Shown here in pieces: positions 1 through 64,000 of a stretch of DNA of 64,000 nt. Under the pieces are notes generated by a model that worked only from the letters and a program-made list of their open reading frames with translations, searched no databases and was not told the DNA's origin. Source of the DNA: Lophium mytilinum (lineage: Eukaryota); contig MU004197.1 of NCBI GenBank assembly GCA_010093605.1, forward strand, positions 1,178,001 to 1,242,000, given 5' to 3'. Positions within the stretch are counted from its first letter, which is position 1; each line of letters starts with the position of its first letter. The position numbers and the translations under genes were made by a program.

Positions 1-248
1 TCGATGTGAGAATAGATGGATAGATAGATAGATAGGAATTGTATTACTTGAGTTCTATTCTACATTAACAGCAACGGAGTTGTATATATACAGCATTTAA
101 TGCATTGTAAAACGTTTCTCTAACGTTCTTGTAACGTTATCCAGCGTTCGTTGTATCACGTTCAAACGCTCACGGTTTTGTCCCGTTTGAAGTCTTTTGA
201 GCCTATTATGCGTAAGGATATAACGCTTATGCTATTATAATCTTTACA
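1..248 (-). repeat. 3' LTR of the copia element (outer end probably cut by the window edge)
   Basis: Aligns with 5242-5489; differences are almost all C/T and G/A transitions. Confidence 0.9.
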
Positions 249-295
249 CACTCCCTTAAGCGTTATATGCTTATTTTGTATATTCTTTTTTGAAT

Positions 296-303
296 AGATA
301 GAG

Positions 304-389
<86 letters not shown>
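296..389. repeat. (GATA)n/(TAGA)n microsatellite inside the copia element
   Basis: About 20 near-perfect GATA units; shorter runs at 414-437, 4580-4720 and in both LTRs. Confidence 0.95.
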
Positions 390-390
<1 letters not shown>

Positions 391-3300
391 ATTTCTTTTT
401 CTTCTTCTTTGCACAGATAGATAGATAGATAGATAGATAAAATCTATATATCTATGTATTTGCGCAATAGAGTTATATCTATATATCTATGTATCTATTT
501 AGTGTCTAATCTCATATAGTCTACTATTTTAGTAAAACTACTTCCCACTAATGGTTTAGTGAATATATTAGTTATTTACTCCTTAGTATTAAGGTAGGCT
601 AGCTTTATTAATCCATTTTAAACATTTTCTCTTACAAAATGATATTATATATCTATATGTTTAGTTTTTGAGTGGTGTTCAGGATTATTAGCTAATTCTA
701 TAGCTGATTAACTATCCGTAAATAGATAGAAGTCTTCTGTATTTTTAATATTAAGTTGTTTTAATATACTTTTTAAGTATATATATTCTTTTATAGTTTC
801 TTTTAAAGCTATATATTTAGCTTCGCAACTAGATAGTGCTATAGATCTCTATAGTTTACTATTCCAGCTAATAGGTGTTTTTCTATAGGAAAAGTAATAT
901 CCTGTAGTAGATTTTCTTCCTATTATATTACCCCCGTAATCTGCATTAGAATAGCCTAATATATATAGTGCAGGATTATTAGGAGAAAATTTAACGCTTA
1001 TTCCTTGCGTAGGCTTATATAATAAGTATTTCCATATCCTTTCTAAGGCTTTAAAGTGAATAGGACTAGGATTAGACATAAAACAAGCGCATAGATTTAC
1101 GCTATAGGCTATATCTAGTCTTATTTTTATAGATAGATAGATAAGACTTCCAACTTATTATTAGTATAGTTTTATATCCTCTTTTAATGCCTGTTTATTG
1201 TTTTTCTCTAGTTTTATACCTATTTCTCCTAGTATAAAGACGGGATTTAGTTTCTCTTTATTAAATCTTTTTAATAGACTTTTTGTATACTTTTTCTAGC
1301 TTAATAATAGGGTTCTTTCCTTTCTATTATATATTATTTCCATGCCTAGAAAATAGGATATAGGCCCTAAGTTTATTAATTCTAAGTCTTTACTTAGTTT
1401 TAATTATAGATTTTCTATATCTTTTATATTTAGGCTAAATACTAATAAATTATCTATGTAGTAGACTATTATTATAGTTTTATTTTTAAATACTGCCTGC
1501 TCTGCAATAGTACTTTTAAAACTGTACTTTTCTAAATATATAGCTAAATGGATATACTATTGTCTAGGGGACTATTTTAAGCCGTATAATGCTTTATTTA
1601 GCTTATAGACTTTATTATTTATATTAAAACCATGTAGTTATTCTATGTATAGTTCTTTATCTAAGTCTATATGCGTAAATGCGTTTTTAAAATCCTATTA
1701 TATTATTTCCTAGTTATAATAAGTAGCTAATACAAGTAATAGCCTATATACTTCTAGGCGGCAGGTATTAGTAAAGGTTTCTTTATAATCTACGCTGTAG
1801 ACTTAGCTAAAACCTTTTACTACCCATCTTGCCTTATATTTAGATATATTATTATCTATATCGGTTTTAATTTTATAAACCCAGCGTCCTTTTAACGCAT
1901 TTCTATTTACTAGTAAGTCTACTAACTTCCAGGTATTTTACTTATTAAGCTAGTCTATTTCTATTTACATAGCTTCTTTCTATTTCTTATTATATAGAGA
2001 TTCTATAGCTTGTTTATACATATTTAGCTCGTTGTTATTATTAATAATAAAGGCTAATTCGTCTTTAGATAGATTATCTATATATGTATTTATAGATAAT
2101 TAAGTTTAGTTTCTATCTATGTATATGTTTAATAATTAATTTTTATCTATATATCTATTTATTAAATTTAGATTTTATATATATCTTTAAATAGATAGAT
2201 TTTTAGATAGTTTTATAGCTAATTTATCTTTAGATAAGCTTTTATCTATAATAGTACTACTTTCGTCTCTAATAGTATTATTACTACTCATTATAGTATT
2301 ATCTATATTTCCATGTTCTTTTAGTAGTTTTATAGCATATTCTATAGAGCTTTCCTTTTTATTTACTTTATTCTTTGTATTTAGAAAGCTTTCTATTATA
2401 GTTATATCTCTTGCCTAGAAAATTTTATTAGTTTCTATATCTAATAATCTATACGCATTTAAACCATAGCCTAATATTATAGCCTTTTTAGCTCTTGGTT
2501 TTAATTTAGTTATTTACGTTTTAACCTTATAAAAAGCTATAGAGCCAAAGATTTTTATATTATCTATTTTAGCTTTTCTTTTATAATATAGCTTAAATAG
2601 CGTTTTATCTTTTAAGCTAGAGTGCAGCGTTCTATTATATATATATATAGCCGCATTTACAGCTTCTCTCTATAGGTTAAAAGGTAAATTAGCTATATAT
2701 AATAGAGCCCTTACTATATTAAATATAGTTAAGTTAATTTACTCTACTAGACCGTTTTGTTCCGGCGTATAGGGGCTTAAGAATTAATGGGTTATACCTG
2801 TTTTTAAAAGAGTTATTTTAAACTTCTTATTTATATATTCTCCCCTATTATTAGTTTTAAAAATTTGTATTTTTCTTTTATCTCCTATATTTATATTTTT
2901 AGCCTTAGCTTTATATTCTAAAAAGGCGTTATAAGCTTTATCTTTAGATTTTAATAGTTTATATTCTATATATCTTAAAGCTGTATCTATAAAGAAGATA
3001 ACATATTTATTACCCCCTAAACTAGGTGGATTTATAGGCCCTGCTAAATCTAAAGAGACTTTTTATAGAGGAATTACTATTTTTAGTATTATTTTCTTAC
3101 TTCTCTTATTTTTTATTATTTTAGCTTTTATACAGGCTTCGCATTAAATAGGCTCTTTTATATTTATACCTAATAGTATACTAAGCTTTCTAGAGCTTAT
3201 ATAGCCTATTCTTTAGTGCTAAATAGATAGATTATTTCTATCTATATATGTATTTGTAAAATCGCTTTTATCTATCTATTTATATATTTAATTTATCTTT

Positions 3301-5225
3301 TTATCTATTTATTTTGTAAAAAGCGTTATATTCTCTATATTTATATAGTATAAAGAGTTTTTAAGTAATACTATTACTAGTATATTATTATTTTTTTATA
3401 TAATAGCTGTTTTATTCTTAAACATAATATTTATTCCTATAGAATCTAGTTTACTTATAGATATTAGATTATATCTAAAGTTAGGAATAAAAAAGCACTT
3501 TTCTAGTATAAATATATTCCCATTTAGTTTTAATTATATATTTCCTACACCTTCTACAGTTGTAGTTTTATTTTCTCCCTAATTTAATATAATAGCTTAC
3601 TTCTTATAACTAGTAAATAGATTTCTATCTACTATTATATAGCTTGTGCTCCCGGAGTCTAATATATAATTAGCTTTGTTATTAGGGGTATAATAGGATG
3701 CTAGAAATACCTTTACTTTAGCTGCATCTAGTTCTATATTAAAATTATCCTATCTAGGGTTAGATTCCTCTATAAGTAAGGATTCTTCCTTCTTATTATT
3801 ATCTTTTAGTGGTTTAAAGTACTCCTTTATTCTAAACTATTTTAGAGCTCTTTCTAGAAATAGATAGAAATAATCTTTTATAAGGTGTGTAGCTATTTTA
3901 CACTTCTTATAGTATTGTTTTTCTATTCTAGTCTTATTGTTAGGTAAGAACTTTTTAGTTCTATTAAATAGAGCCGTTTTGTGCTCTTTAGACTCTTATC
4001 TTCTTGCTTTATCTATTAAATTAAAGATTAAATTATCTAATTTAATATTAGATGAGTTTTCCCTATAGGATTACGTAACCATTATTATAAAGCCATTATA
4101 GGGGTCTGTTAGGTTATTTAAAACCTAGGCTATAATAACTTAATTTAGTAATTTAAGCTTTTTTCGCTTTTAATTAATCTATTAACTATTTTATCTTATT
4201 TAAGTAATCTTCTATAGTTAAAAACTTAGATAAAATAGTATTAAATAGCTTCTTATAAATAAGGAATTTAGAACTAAAGCCCTTTAGGCTATATAGCTTC
4301 TTTAGTAGCTTCTAAGCTTCTATTATAGTAGTAGAATACTATAATTATAATAGAGGACCGTCCTCTATAGTAAGCCTAATAGTGGCTAATGCTTTTATAT
4401 TATTTTCCTTATTAATAGGAATAGTAGTACTGCTAATAGCATTACTACAACTTTTTTCTACTAAGAGAGATTATACTCTTAGAGCCTAAACTTTGTAGTT
4501 AGATTAACCAACTAGCTTAGTAATACTGATTTTATCCATTTTAGATTAAATAGATAGCTAGATAGCCTGTTAGGTAAATAGATAGATAGATAAATAGATG
4601 GATTTCTATATATCTATAGATTTATTAAATAGATAGATTTCTATCTATCTATATATTTGGCGAATAGATAGATAGATAAATTCTATGTATCTATGTATTT
4701 AATGAATAGATAGATAGATAGAAAGAGAAATATTTTAATTTTTAATTAATTTATCTTCTTGTATTAGATAAGATAATAGGATAAAAGGTTATAATCTAAT
4801 CTAGAGTATCCAGATTTAATACGTAATAGATAATAGACGTTAGAAGGTTAATTGCGTGGTTTATAATGTAATATAAGCTTATAGAAGCTTTATAATAGTA
4901 AATATAAATTTCTTTAGTCTGATTTTGTTTATAATAGATTTATAATTCTAGATTGCGTTCTAGCTATTATATGGCGGGCTTATAATTAATAACTTCGTCC
5001 TCTTCTTTAATTTTGGCTTTGTTTTATGCTTAAAACTACTTATACGGTGGTGTAGTAGGTTTATAGGCTAGAGATGGTAATTAAGATAGTAAACGGCGTT
5101 ATTTTCGTCCAATATTTAGTTGATTTAAATAATTTTAGTCGATATTTTATTAATTTTAAGAGGGAACCTGCCTGTTAGTACTATATATAGTTGTAGATTG
5201 CATAGTACAATCCAAGCTTATAACC

Positions 5226-7393: not shown

Positions 7394-7551
7394 GGCAACA
7401 TGGCCGAGGTAAGCAACTCCACAACCCGACGGTGTTCACCCGTTAATATTCAGCAGTGGTTATGGCGTGTGACTCAAGTTTAGGCTTACCTCTTCAAGAG
7501 GTTGTATTCTCATGGGCTTTGCCCGCGTGGGTTCGAATCCCACTGTTGTCA
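7394..7551 (+). tRNA. tRNA-Leu(CAA) with a canonical anticodon-loop intron (7479-7506) and an extra 48-nt D-loop intron (7409-7456)
   Basis: Acceptor stem GGCAACA (7394-7400) pairs with TGTTGTC (7544-7550); discriminator A. Joined D arm reads GCCGAG|TGGTTATGGC. Anticodon CAA at 7475-7477, long variable arm GGGCTTTGCCC, T arm GTGGGTTCGAATCCCAC. Confidence 0.88.
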
Positions 7552-7557
7552 GCAAAC

Positions 7558-7574
7558 TTTTTTGATCTTTTTTT
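7558..7574 (+). terminator. Pol III poly-T terminator of the tRNA gene
   Basis: T6 run just after the tRNA 3' end, followed by a T7 run. Confidence 0.75.
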
Positions 7575-59124: not shown

Positions 59125-60949
59125 GGTAGAGCGTGGTGGCCTTGCTGCGGTGCCGGGCCGGCGGGCGTGGCCGTGTGAGACGGACCAGCGAAGCGAGAGC
59201 ACCAGCTTCTGGATCCTACAGCACACGCGGAAACCGATCGAGTGGTAAAGCGATGGGACTGTCGTCAACCGTCAGTGTCTCCATGATCAAGCCACGAAAC
59301 TGCTGTCCGGGGCAGACGGACGAGGGGAGAGCGAGGGGTTGCCACCGGCGTCTTCTGCAATCGTTTTCAACGTCAACGGCACGAGGCAGATCCCTACTAG
59401 ATCCTCATCGTACCCAGACTGGCGGGACTTACTCCAACTGTTCGTTTCTCTCGATGCCTCAAGCGGTGGCCGGGTGCCCGTGGGCGGCCTGCGAGCGGCG
59501 TAGAACGCAACAGCGGGTCTGGTGGCAGAGAAAGATATAGCGAGTGTCAGCGAGACGACCAGACGCAGCCCCCTCTTCAGCAGCGGCCGAGCAGGTGATC
59601 GGGACTGCAACGAGGGACAGCACCCTGCGCTGGGGCGATTGGTTGTGGGAAGAACGAGCAGGCAGGCAGGCCGAGTGGTACGACGAGGGTATTGCAGAGC
59701 CCCGGCTGTTGGTTGCGGAAGAATGGCTAGCAGGACCCAGGTGCACGTCGACTCGCAGCACCAGACGGGACAGCAGAAGGAGCTCAGAGCGCAATGGCTC
59801 AGGTCGGGATCCTAGGCAGGGCGCTGCTTAAGAAGCCCGCTGCCCAACTCGACGCCAGGCTGCCCTAGAGAAGAAACCTCTGTGCGTTGCCATGGGCCGT
59901 GACGACGGCAGCAAGGCGAGGCTGCAAGCCATGCGACTCGCCAGCGCTGAAGCCCGCGGATCCAACGTGCGTCAACTGTACCGTGGTAAATCGAGACGCA
60001 GGCTGCTGCGAGCGTCGAGAGGGCGGCATCTCGATCTTCCATCGCTGACATGGTGTGTGAGAAGCATGCCGCCACGGTCAGGGTGCTGAAGGACGCCCAT
60101 TGCACGGCCCGTAGCATCTTGCCGCCGCAACGCGCCTGGTTGGCTGACGGAAGCCGGTAGAGGTTCCGCGCACAGTCGATCGCGTCTGGTCGGTGTACCT
60201 GGGCGCAACGCCTGGCGGGGATCGTGAATGCCATGCAGCTCTCCAGCAGGGGCTACAGTTTAGATTGCCTGTATCTTGGCGGCAAACATTTTATAATGCC
60301 TATAAACGCCTCCAGGACGCCAGATTAACACGCCTATACTAATTAAGGCCTAGTAACTAGTTCCTAGGCCCGTTTAAGTATTAGCTCTATTATTTTATAT
60401 TATAAAGGTGTTTTTAGCTACTATATAACTCTATATAGGCCTTAGCTATAGTATTAAGGTATAATTTCTTATATACTTTATATACTATATACTACTATTA
60501 TTATTATAATAGCTTTTAGGCCTCTATATAAGCTTATAAATTAAACTAGGCTTAATAGATTTATTTTTAATAGATAGCCGCCTTTAAGGCCCTTCTAGAG
60601 GCGCTTAATAAGTACTAAATTATCTAAAATAGTAATAGATATATATATTAAGCTATAGAAAATATAGCTAAGCTACTATACTATAGAAAGCTATAGAGAA
60701 GTAGATTTAAAGGCTTTATAGGCCTTATCTAGTTAAAAGAGCTATAGACTAACTTTTACTATAGCTATACTAAGAATCTATTTACCTATATTTCTATACT
60801 ATATTAGTAATAAAAAAGTAATAAAAATTAATAGATTTTAATACTATAAAGCTATAAGAACTTACTATATAGAGGCCCTTTCTATACCTTTTTAAAGGCC
60901 TTAATTTATTCTTTCTATTTTATATAGCCTCTTATATAGCCTTTTATAT

Positions 60950-62600
60950 AGTCTTACTATTATTATTTATAGCCCTACTATTATCTATATACTTACTATT
61001 ATCTATAGCCTTTAATTCTACCCTAAATTAAGCTATTTCTAGCCTAAATTAACTGCTTTTTATCGCCTACCTTATTACCGCGATGCAATTAGCTAGTATT
61101 TCTAATATTAGTAATTAATTTAGCTATTAGAATAAGATCTAACTCCTTATCTATAATATAGCTATTAAGAAATAATAGGCTTCTTATATATATACTAGTA
61201 AGAATAGCCGCCTAGACCTCTACTACTATTTAATAGAGGATTATAACTAGCATCTCTATACTATAAGAAAGAAGAATAAAAAGTTAATTACTATAGTAAA
61301 GGTTAATAACCTCTACTATTATATTAAGGCTCTACTAGTCGCCCGGGCGCCTTATACTTATATTAAGTACCTGCTAGAGGTACTACCTTAATTTCTATAT
61401 ATTAATAGAGTAACGCTAATAGTAACTATCTAGTTTATAGTTATAATGTACTATAGAGGGCCTATTAAGAAGGCGTAGGCTTAAAAGGTCTAGAAGATTC
61501 TTACTAGTAAGAAGATAGTTACTATATAAGAGAACTACTAGAGAATTTCTAAGTTTCTCTAGCGCCTCTATAAGGCTAACCTAGGTATTATAATAGACCT
61601 TATAATATAGAGTAATATCTTTCTATATATTTTTATCTACTCTAAGAAGAGTAACCTCTTCTTTAGTAATAGTCTTAGATAGATAGAACTTAATAAAATG
61701 CACTAGCGGAATAGCTATAAAGGCGTTATTTTAATAGCTATTAGGCGTAACTAGAATAATAAGATCTATCTACTAGTATAGAGTATTATAGAGAATAAGA
61801 GTAATAAGATATAGGCGTAGTTCTATATAAATATAATTAGGGCTATAGTAGTTCTAAGGGCTAGCTAGTAGACTATCTACTTATAAGTATTATTTTCTTT
61901 TTTAAGAATATCCGTGCGTTTATTTATTATAGGAAGAACGCGCTAAACGCGTTAATTTTAGTAAGAAATTGCGCATTTATAAGCAAGTTTCTATTATAAT
62001 AAATAAGTATAGATATTAATAAAAATTATAATAGCCCCCTCTTAATTTCTATATACCTATTTATAATAGTATCTATACCTCTTAATTTCCTTCTATATAC
62101 TTCTTAATACTATAGTTAATTTCTACGCCTATTTTTATAGTCCCTATTAACTACGCTATTCTCTATAGTAGATTATTTAAAAATCTACCTACTTATACTA
62201 TTTTTTTTATAGTAATTATAATAAAGGCCTAATTAACGCTATTACTATCTACTTTCTAGCCTACTATACTATATACTATTACTAGCACCTTATAGAGAAT
62301 ATTAAGAAGGCCTATAGAGTTACTAGCTTACGCCTATTCTATATAGTTACTTAATATACTAATAATATATTATTTTAGTAGAATATAGCTAAAATAGCTA
62401 TTTATAGCCTAGGCGCTATAGCCTATATACTTACCTAGAACTCTAGAAAGTAGCTATTAAGAAACTACCCTACTAGGCGCTTTAGGTCTATTACTAGCGG
62501 CGTAAGTAAGTTCTAAAATAAGGTTATCTATAATAAGCGCTTAAAGTTAATACTCTTACTTATTAGCTTTATCTAGTACTAATATATTATAACTTATACT
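60950..62600 (+). mobile_element. RIP-degenerated Mutator-like (MULE) transposase relic; boundaries approximate
   Basis: Reversing TpA changes at 61680-61830 gives ELD.MH.RNGYKGVILMAIGRD.NN.IYPL.WSIVENES..TWAWF, a MULE core. A QHL.EN motif follows near 62280. Confidence 0.62.
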
Positions 62601-62819
62601 AAGTACTACACTAAGATTATAAAGCTTAGCACCTCTATCTAGCCCCTTTAATAGAGAAAATACAATGCAATTAAATTTATAGCACCTTAGAAATACAACC
62701 TAAGGAGTGCCCCTAGGGGCTACTTAAGGCCCTATAAACGTTTGCACGCAGTATTAGAGCTCTATAAGCTATGCTAGCGGCGTCGCGGTAGAATTATATA
62801 TTATAACCCCTATTATGCA

Positions 62820-62824
62820 GCATT

Positions 62825-62857
<33 letters not shown>

Positions 62858-62880
62858 ACTAATAATACTAATAATAACCC
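62820..62880. repeat. (TAA)n simple repeat
   Basis: Run of AAT/TAA units with TAC variants. Confidence 0.85.
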
Positions 62881-62899
62881 TAAAACTAAACCTACTAAC

Positions 62900-64000
62900 T
62901 AAAGACTAAGTAGAATATCTATGCTAATATCTAAGCGCTTATTAAAGAAGCCTATAGTATATAGGACTCTCTATAGAATAAGCCTATATCCTCTAACCCT
63001 AAGATAAATAACGCCCTTAAGCACCTCTAGAACTTCGCCGGGCGTATACTAGCTAGCCTCTTAGGTACTATAGAGGACCTATAATAAATGCTATAGAGAA
63101 AGATAATAAAGATAATAAAGAAAATATAGAAGGGCGTATAGGTGCTATCTATATAAGAAATAACCTATGCAGTAGTAATAGTAGTAGAAAGAAATAGTAA
63201 GACTATAGAAAATAGGGAGTATATAATATAGACTACCTATAAAATTACTATATATATTAAGAATAAGAAGGAACGCGCTGTAATAAATAAGGACTTAAAC
63301 GCAACTATTACCTATAAGCTCTAAGTAGTAGAAGAGCCTAATATAATAAAGATCTATAGTATTAGAAAGCTCTAGAGTAGAGATGTAAAGGCCTATATAC
63401 TAGACGTAACCGCTAAGAAAGCCCTATTAAAGAAGAAGGAATAGATAAAGGTCCTAGGTAAAATAGTATAAATCTAACTACCTAAGGTTCTTCTAGAGGT
63501 ATATAGAGTACCTAAAGAGATAGACCTAAAGGACCTAATACTATAAAGTAGCATTATATAAGATAATAAGGTACTATATCTAGGCCTAGCTATATATAAG
63601 ATTATATAGAAGCACCTAAATTAAATCTAGGCTATTAGAAATAACCCTAAACGGCGCGCCTTATTAGCTATAGTTACTATAGGCATAGAGGTAATAGTAA
63701 ATAAAATTATAGATAGCGGGCTAGTATAGAATAGATATATACTAGAGGCTGTAAAGTATAAGGTAGGCTTTATAGCTACCTAATGCTTCTAATACTAGGG
63801 CTATAGGCACGTCGCTAGACACTATAAGAAGAAGGCGGTATACGCAGCGTGCGCAGAAGCTTATAATATAAGATAATGCATAGAGAAGAGTATTAGGAAG
63901 TGCGCTAACTATAAGAGAAGCTACCTATTATATAGTGCGGCGTGCACTATAAGAAAGAATACTTAACTAAAAGCTAATATAAAGAGGTAGGTAGTACTAA
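62900..64000 (+). mobile_element. RIP-degenerated LINE (Tad1-like) ORF1/gag relic running off the window
   Basis: De-RIPped 63780-63960 reads approximately QCF.CQGYGHVARHC....VCAACAEAH....C......KCANC..SH, the three zinc knuckles typical of non-LTR ORF1. Confidence 0.7.

Follow-up and report, generated by a model that had tools for sequence, protein, structure and literature searches.

Evidence for a conserved D-loop intron of the spliceosomal type in ascomycete tRNA-Leu(CAA) genes

How is a transfer RNA (tRNA) matured when its gene is interrupted in the D-loop by an insert that bears the signals of a messenger RNA (mRNA) intron? The question is raised by a tRNA-Leu(CAA) gene on the forward strand of a 64,000-nt stretch of the Lophium mytilinum genome (GenBank assembly GCA_010093605.1, contig MU004197.1, positions 1,178,001 to 1,242,000). 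This whole stretch is called the window below, and positions are counted from its first base. The gene (7394-7551) contains two inserts, one in the D-loop and one after G37, and the initial annotation, made from the letters of the window, had read the first of them as a GT-AG intron of the spliceosomal type. Our analysis supports this reading: the GT, the branch box and the AG are conserved among homologous genes whereas the interior of the insert diverges, and the paired positions of the exons covary. Taken together, the data support the view of the D-loop insert as a conserved, apparently selected spliceosomal-type intron in tRNA-Leu(CAA) genes of several ascomycete lineages. The tRNA would then probably need the spliceosome besides the usual tRNA-splicing enzymes.

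The anatomy of the gene is as follows, all features lying on the forward strand. Exon 1 (7394-7408) comprises the 5' acceptor strand (7394-7400), U8, G9 and the start of the D arm and of the A box, and ends in TGGCCGAG (7401-7408). The D-loop insert (48 nt, 7409-7456) follows between G15 and U16 and has the form GTAAGC...TTAAT...CAG, with the 5' splice site GTAAGC at 7409-7414, the YTRAY-type branch box TTAAT at 7443-7447 (within GTTAAT, 7442-7447), its presumed branch A at 7446, 10 nt from the last base of the intron, and the 3' splice site CAG at 7454-7456. Exon 2 (7457-7478) opens with the TGG that completes the A box and continues through the remaining D arm and the 5' strand of the anticodon stem to the anticodon CAA (7475-7477) and G37 (7478). 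The second insert (28 nt, 7479-7506) lies at position 37/38, as endonuclease-type tRNA introns do, and contains GCTTACCTC at 7484-7492. Exon 3 (7507-7551) consists of the 3' strand of the anticodon stem, a long variable arm, the T arm with an intact B box GGTTCGAATCC (7530-7540), the 3' acceptor strand (7544-7550) and the discriminator base A73 (7551). A run of six T (7558-7563), which has the form of an RNA polymerase III (Pol III) terminator, is located 7 nt past the gene, and a second run of seven T comes soon after. The initial annotation had placed both inserts and the splice signals at these positions and had called the B box and the T-run intact, and inspection of the sequence bore out all of this, as well as the proposed pairing of the acceptor strands (7394-7400 with 7544-7550), which is complete (7/7 pairs). 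The T-stem (5/5 pairs) and the D-stem (3/3 pairs) are likewise fully paired. The anticodon stem (7467-7471 with 7508-7512) has a U29-U41 mismatch (4/5 pairs), which is kept in all 17 genes compared below and in their uninterrupted relatives.

It had also been claimed that exact removal of 7409-7456 restores the D arm and A box, and that scanning programs could miss such genes; both points held. The default (bacterial) mode of ARAGORN reported no tRNAs across the 64-kb window, and Rfam at the gathering score found nothing at the locus; under permissive settings the Rfam tRNA model reached 15.3 bits, against a threshold of 29, and covered 7442-7551 only. With introns allowed, ARAGORN made a forced call with a 66-nt "intron" in the anticodon loop. 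Deletion of 7409-7456 in silico led to a call of tRNA-Leu(CAA) with an anticodon-loop intron, and deletion of both inserts to a clean class II tRNA-Leu(CAA) with a long variable arm.

Homologous loci were retrieved from metagenomes with a pattern in which the end of exon 1 is separated by 38-68 nt of any content from exon 2 (up to G37). The scan yielded 28 loci (designated L001 and so on), and the insert in relatives that the initial annotation had proposed to look for was present at the site of the window insert in 21 of them (16 distinct sequences from six data sets), with a length of 49-55 nt. Two of the other matches were rejected as GC-rich chance matches, and five as Leu(CAA) genes that are uninterrupted and have TGGCCGAG a second time upstream. 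The comparisons below therefore refer to 17 distinct sequences, i.e. the window gene and 16 metagenomic ones. The protein encoded in the flank of L020 has an ascomycete cluster as its nearest one in the protein atlas. When both inserts were removed, ARAGORN called tRNA-Leu(CAA) in 17/17 distinct sequences; when only the D-loop insert was removed, 15 were called Leu(CAA) with an anticodon-loop intron, while L007 and L020 were parsed otherwise. From the unspliced genes with introns allowed, the program mislabeled L001, L003, L005, L008, L011, L013, L020-L025 and L027 as tRNAs for selenocysteine, Met, Lys, Tyr, Arg, Glu or Val, with "introns" of 76-95 nt, and missed the remaining interrupted loci. 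Automatic annotation of such genomes would thus be wrong, and fungal genomes may seem to be devoid of Leu(CAA) genes that they actually have.

The ends and the branch region of the inserts are strongly constrained. At the 5' end, G1 and T2 are invariant (17/17) and A3, A4 and G5 are each found in 16/17; the first six bases read GTAAGN in 14 inserts, while GTATGT, GTTAGT and GTAAAT occur once each. A YTRAY box (CTAAC in 12) is present in every insert, its A 10-11 nt from the 3' end, and all 17 end in AG, preceded by C in seven, T in nine and A in one (YAG in 16/17). Interior positions, in contrast, have a mean top-base frequency of 0.45 over the 17 sequences. An insert that was unique, unconserved and devoid of GT and AG in orthologues had been named as the case that would speak against a spliceosomal-type intron; what was found is GT and AG in every sequence. 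Calculated from the inserts' own base frequencies, the combination of a GT start, an AG end and a YTRAY box placed so that its A is 10-11 nt from the end is expected in about 4 of 100,000 random inserts, so that chance is unlikely, given that the three features recur in 17/17 homologous inserts. The candidate mRNA introns of the window, inferred by the heuristic of reading-frame logic alone, are mostly 48-68 nt long, compared with 48 nt for the D-loop insert; they start with GTAAGC (the hexamer that opens the D-loop insert), GTAAGT, GTACGT or GTGAGT, and their YAG follows a CTAAC or CTGAC box at a distance of 10-20 nt. An introner-like repeated element was also considered and rejected, since the window insert occurs just once in the window and nowhere in the 28 loci.

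The exons behave differently from the inserts. Seven distinct mature sequences were obtained, each with 7/7 acceptor, 5/5 T-stem and 3/3 D-stem pairs, a long variable arm and A73, and more than one type of Watson-Crick pair occurs at six of the seven acceptor pairs and two of the five T-stem pairs, i.e. changes are compensatory. In ten distinct loci, the 82 nt of exon are 100% identical, while the D-loop inserts average 53% identity (range 37-82%) and the anticodon introns are 85% alike. Perfect exons beside a drifting insert are not expected of a pseudogene, and the substitution patterns demonstrate apparent purifying selection on the exons of the interrupted Leu(CAA) genes.

The placement of the insert is also informative. 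It lies between positions 15 and 16 in 12 of the genes and between 14 and 15 in five; in the latter, the G missing from exon 1 is regained after the terminal AG, and the mature sequence is unchanged. Both placements occur inside the identical-exon group. Such a compensated shift by one nucleotide makes sense only if excision falls exactly at the GT and the AG. In addition, the uninterrupted gene L004 has, outside the variable loop, the sequence predicted for spliced L017. The intron is evidently old, as it occupies the same site in at least seven diverged tRNA-Leu(CAA) lineages.

What would remove such an insert? We consider the spliceosome likely to do so, acting on a Pol III precursor and yielding a working tRNA. 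The locus would then be a working nuclear ascomycete tRNA-Leu(CAA) gene, whose precursor would contain two introns of different kinds, a 48-nt U2-type GT-AG intron in the D-loop and an ordinary intron after G37. Transcription by Pol III would depend on three elements, namely an upstream TATA-like one, the 8-9 nt that are left of the A box, and an intact B box, and would end at the run of six T. The spliceosome would take out the D-loop intron as a lariat, restoring the D-loop, with G18 and G19, and the L-shaped body, and the tRNA splicing endonuclease and tRNA ligase would afterwards remove the 37/38 intron. Eukaryotic tRNA splicing endonuclease measures from the folded mature body; the spliceosomal step is placed first because a 48-nt insertion in the D-loop would disrupt this body. 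Features of the sequence are the basis on which we infer Pol III transcription, excision by the spliceosome and the order of the steps.

The measuring mechanism also bears on the proposal that the D-loop insert is cut by a protein endonuclease and the ends joined by a ligase, the former being either the tRNA endonuclease acting on a bulge-helix-bulge or another enzyme. There are precedents: tRNA genes of Archaea, Cyanidioschyzon merolae and nucleomorphs have introns outside the anticodon loop, the D-loop included, sometimes several in one gene, and these too are missed by scanners. Moreover, the same ligase is already required for the 37/38 intron. Bulge-helix-bulge introns are defined by an RNA structure that the endonuclease cuts, whereas the D-loop inserts are defined by spliceosomal sequence signals. 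No such structure was found in a register test for the removal at bulge-helix-bulge sites that the initial annotation had named as a case against itself: a 4-bp central helix is present in 0/17 inserts, and the mean is 4.0 of 10 pairs versus about 3.75 for random sequence, in a test of low power in which the control 37/38 introns of the same genes scored only 5.5 of 10. The proposal offers no reason why every insert should have a GT start, an AG end and a branch box at a set distance, and it places the insert within the very body from which the eukaryotic enzyme measures; we regard it as very improbable.

Transcription by Pol III is indicated by three features: the B box is perfect in 16/17 genes (it is split in L007), a run of four to seven T lies within approximately 20 nt downstream in 17/17, and a TATA-like box is found about 30-45 nt upstream in most loci. 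The box at about -30 to -45 resembles GTATATATA in most loci. A (T)GACGTCA-like palindrome (the TGACGTCA motif) was observed approximately 10-25 nt upstream in 7/17 genes (L001, L002, L003, L015, L021, L022, L023); the 5' flank of the window gene is without it. The A box has the consensus TRGCNNAGTGG, and in the window it is split after its eighth base (TGGCCGAG, intron, TGG), leaving no contiguous A box; in the five genes with the insert at 14/15, nine A-box bases stay contiguous.

The split A box, together with the B box of L007, which is also split by a second GT-AG insert, lends some weight to another origin of the precursor, namely that the insert is a true spliceosomal intron of an RNA polymerase II (Pol II) transcript, either capped and independent or belonging to a neighboring gene, from which the tRNA is then cut out by RNase P and RNase Z. 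Recruitment of the spliceosome is normally coupled to Pol II, and the upstream TATA-like boxes and the TGACGTCA motif could be counted on the same side. On the other side, upstream TATA boxes are also usual in Pol III tRNA genes of fission yeast. The T-run, a Pol III stop signal, in every gene and the perfect B box in all but one argue against a Pol II precursor, and the flanks differ between the loci, so that there is no shared host gene. We judge a Pol II precursor improbable.

Several observations weigh against excision of the D-loop insert by the spliceosome from the precursor of a working Pol III gene. Besides the split A box of the window gene, the depletion of T-runs in the inserts is not significant (the 895 nt of insert contain one run of at least four T, and the flanks 3.3 per kb), and that argument for Pol III fails. 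As exon 2 and the end of exon 1 were part of the scan pattern, invariance there is no evidence, and the loci may include paralogues of one genome or one organism sampled repeatedly. Among the contigs of sequencing runs (DNA-like) that could be placed on the locus, no joint across the insert was seen. Uninterrupted Leu(CAA) paralogues in the source genome may make the window copy dispensable. The branch box of the window, TTAAT, is the weakest of the 17, with a T at a position that is C in all the others. Finally, GCTTACCTC in the anticodon intron (7484-7492) is a perfect 9-nt complement of 7406-7414 (GAG/GTAAGC), the region of the D-loop 5' splice site; the pairing is included in the minimum-free-energy fold of the window gene, has a duplex energy of -16.2 kcal/mol that was matched by 0 of 1000 shuffles, and could hinder binding of U1.

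The last three points lead to the main alternative, in which the intron-bearing family is real, and the window copy is dead or dispensable, with its weak branch box and masked 5' splice site, while other Leu(CAA) genes supply the tRNA. A decaying copy should show damage in its exons too, and those of the window gene are flawless (7/7 acceptor, 5/5 T-stem and 3/3 D-stem pairs, A73, B box, six-T run), which counts against this alternative, as does the retention of all splice signals in the window (GT, YTRAY at 10 nt, CAG). We therefore consider a dead or dispensable window copy unlikely, though the most probable of the competing explanations.

As a feature of the family, the pairing between the 5' splice site and the anticodon intron was rejected: of the 17 genes, only that of the window shows it strongly; in L008 and L020 it is marginal, and the other 14 do not have it. 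In the window, its effect may be to hide the 5' splice site or to determine which splicing step comes first, or it may be due to chance. A different pairing was noticed in the ten loci with a GCATTCG acceptor strand, whose D-loop introns contain a CCAAT-like box and a YGRTGCA motif approximately 25-30 nt in, the latter being complementary to the 5' acceptor strand of its own gene. Pairing between acceptor strand and D-loop intron is significant in several loci of this group and in L020. It was rejected as a general feature, since it lacks significance in the window (z of +1.2) and in a cross-comparison of seven lineages (-4.8 kcal/mol on the diagonal versus -4.3 kcal/mol off it).

Regarding the sequencing runs, a source-like one (X1) spans the locus unchanged, and two others (X4 and X5) gave nothing there. 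Run X3, whose contigs total approximately 33 Mb, suggesting genomic DNA, contains a 7007-nt contig that is identical to the window and starts exactly at 7455, which is where exon 1 (..GAG) and the intron (..CAG) begin to share their final bases. A fork of the assembly graph at 7454/7455 or 7484/7485 would explain this start; the contig is not used as evidence.

The closest known parallel is the single U6 gene of Schizosaccharomyces pombe, transcribed by Pol III, which carries an intron that the spliceosome excises (Tani and Ohshima, 1989, 1991, as cited in the available part of PMC5855946). The introns of U6 in S. pombe and other yeasts, as far as they are described there, share with the present one a short GT-AG intron in the gene of a small structured non-coding RNA made by Pol III. 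The difference is in the host: U6 is itself a spliceosomal RNA, whose intron is naturally explained by reverse splicing at the active site, whereas a tRNA is a host without a known role in the spliceosome, and its precursor, unlike that of U6, also needs a second, unrelated splicing system. Ascomycete ribosomal RNA (rRNA) genes also hold spliceosomal introns (Bhattacharya et al., 2000, cited in the same part of PMC5855946); these are similar in being of spliceosomal type, residing in an abundant non-coding RNA gene, and lying outside Pol II genes, and different in that rRNAs are Pol I transcripts, while here a Pol III gene for an RNA of about 80 nt has its internal promoter split by the intron. 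The non-coding hosts listed in the available part of this 2018 review of U6 (PMC5855946) are the U6, U2, U5 and U1 small nuclear RNAs and rRNA; tRNA is not among them.

From the side of tRNA biology, eukaryotic tRNA introns are described as located between N37 and N38 and contrasted with spliceosomal splicing (Phizicky and Hopper, 2023, PMC10275265, in its available part), and spliceosomal and tRNA introns are treated as separate classes, with those of eukaryotic tRNAs at 37/38, in the available part of a further paper (van Hoof et al., 2025, PMC12530127). The second intron of the window gene (7479-7506) is exactly of the canonical kind, and Leu-CAA is a classic intron-bearing tRNA; the D-loop insert, unlike canonical tRNA introns, lies at 15/16 and has a GT, a branch box and an AG. 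An artificial yeast tRNA gene with a pre-mRNA intron, that of actin, is said to have been spliced by the pre-mRNA machinery (reportedly by Kohrer, Vogel and Domdey, around 1990), a report that we did not trace in the literature search. It would mean that the spliceosome is able to act on a pre-tRNA made by Pol III; that construct was engineered, whereas the present arrangement is natural, conserved and apparently selected. In the literature searched, which was thin on subscription journals, no account of a spliceosomal intron occurring naturally in a tRNA gene was found, and a prior description is possible.

Should the spliceosome indeed excise the D-loop intron, tRNA would join the short list of non-coding RNAs that host spliceosomal introns, and these genes would offer a natural system for studying how the spliceosome recognizes an uncapped Pol III transcript with a first exon of about 15 nt; the finding would also bear on how new introns are gained. 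The U1-like 9-mer of the tRNA-type intron in the window might set the order of, or gate, the two splicing reactions. More tentatively, and as a possibility that we at present doubt rather than favor, an ascomycete lineage may make its UUG-decoding tRNA-Leu(CAA) only via the spliceosome, the ancient D-loop intron having become obligatory, with further spliceosomal introns still being gained by tRNA genes, as in L007. In that case tRNA, as an abundant RNA, would naturally attract new introns, presumably through reverse splicing, translation capacity would be tied to the activity of the spliceosome, and these fungi would routinely hand Pol III transcripts over to it.

The gene in L007 (1393-1620, forward strand) has the same mature sequence as L020, plus a third insert of 55 nt (GTAAGT...TACTAAC...CAG), which interrupts the T-loop between T54 and T55 and thereby the B box. 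To judge from its sequence, this insert seems to be another intron of the spliceosomal type, acquired by a tRNA gene more recently. The split B box raises the question of how such a gene is transcribed.

Two observations concern relatives of the interrupted genes. The five uninterrupted genes (L004, L006, L014, L018 and L026) have the extra TGGCCGAG box 31-34 nt upstream of their own A box, in a conserved stretch; L018, which is on the contig of L014 at a distance of 38 kb, has a damaged T arm. In L021, a 5'-truncated tRNA-Leu(CAA)-like relic (1150-1240, reverse strand) is located approximately 280 nt downstream of the interrupted gene. It begins near the start of exon 2 and keeps the anticodon intron and the B box, and is devoid of exon 1, the D-loop intron and a nearby T-run.

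In the 64-kb window, the tRNA-Leu(CAA) gene is the only tRNA-like gene according to ARAGORN with introns allowed. A large tetratricopeptide repeat (TPR) protein is encoded nearby, and its nearest cluster in the protein atlas is in Ascomycota. The GC content is 50-59% in the middle of the window, and 25% and 32% at its AT-rich ends (1-4000 and 60001-64000, respectively). In the first of these ends there is an open reading frame (2784-3062, reverse strand), which we take to resemble a fragment of a retrotransposon integrase; the AT-rich ends and this frame suggest mutated transposon relics.

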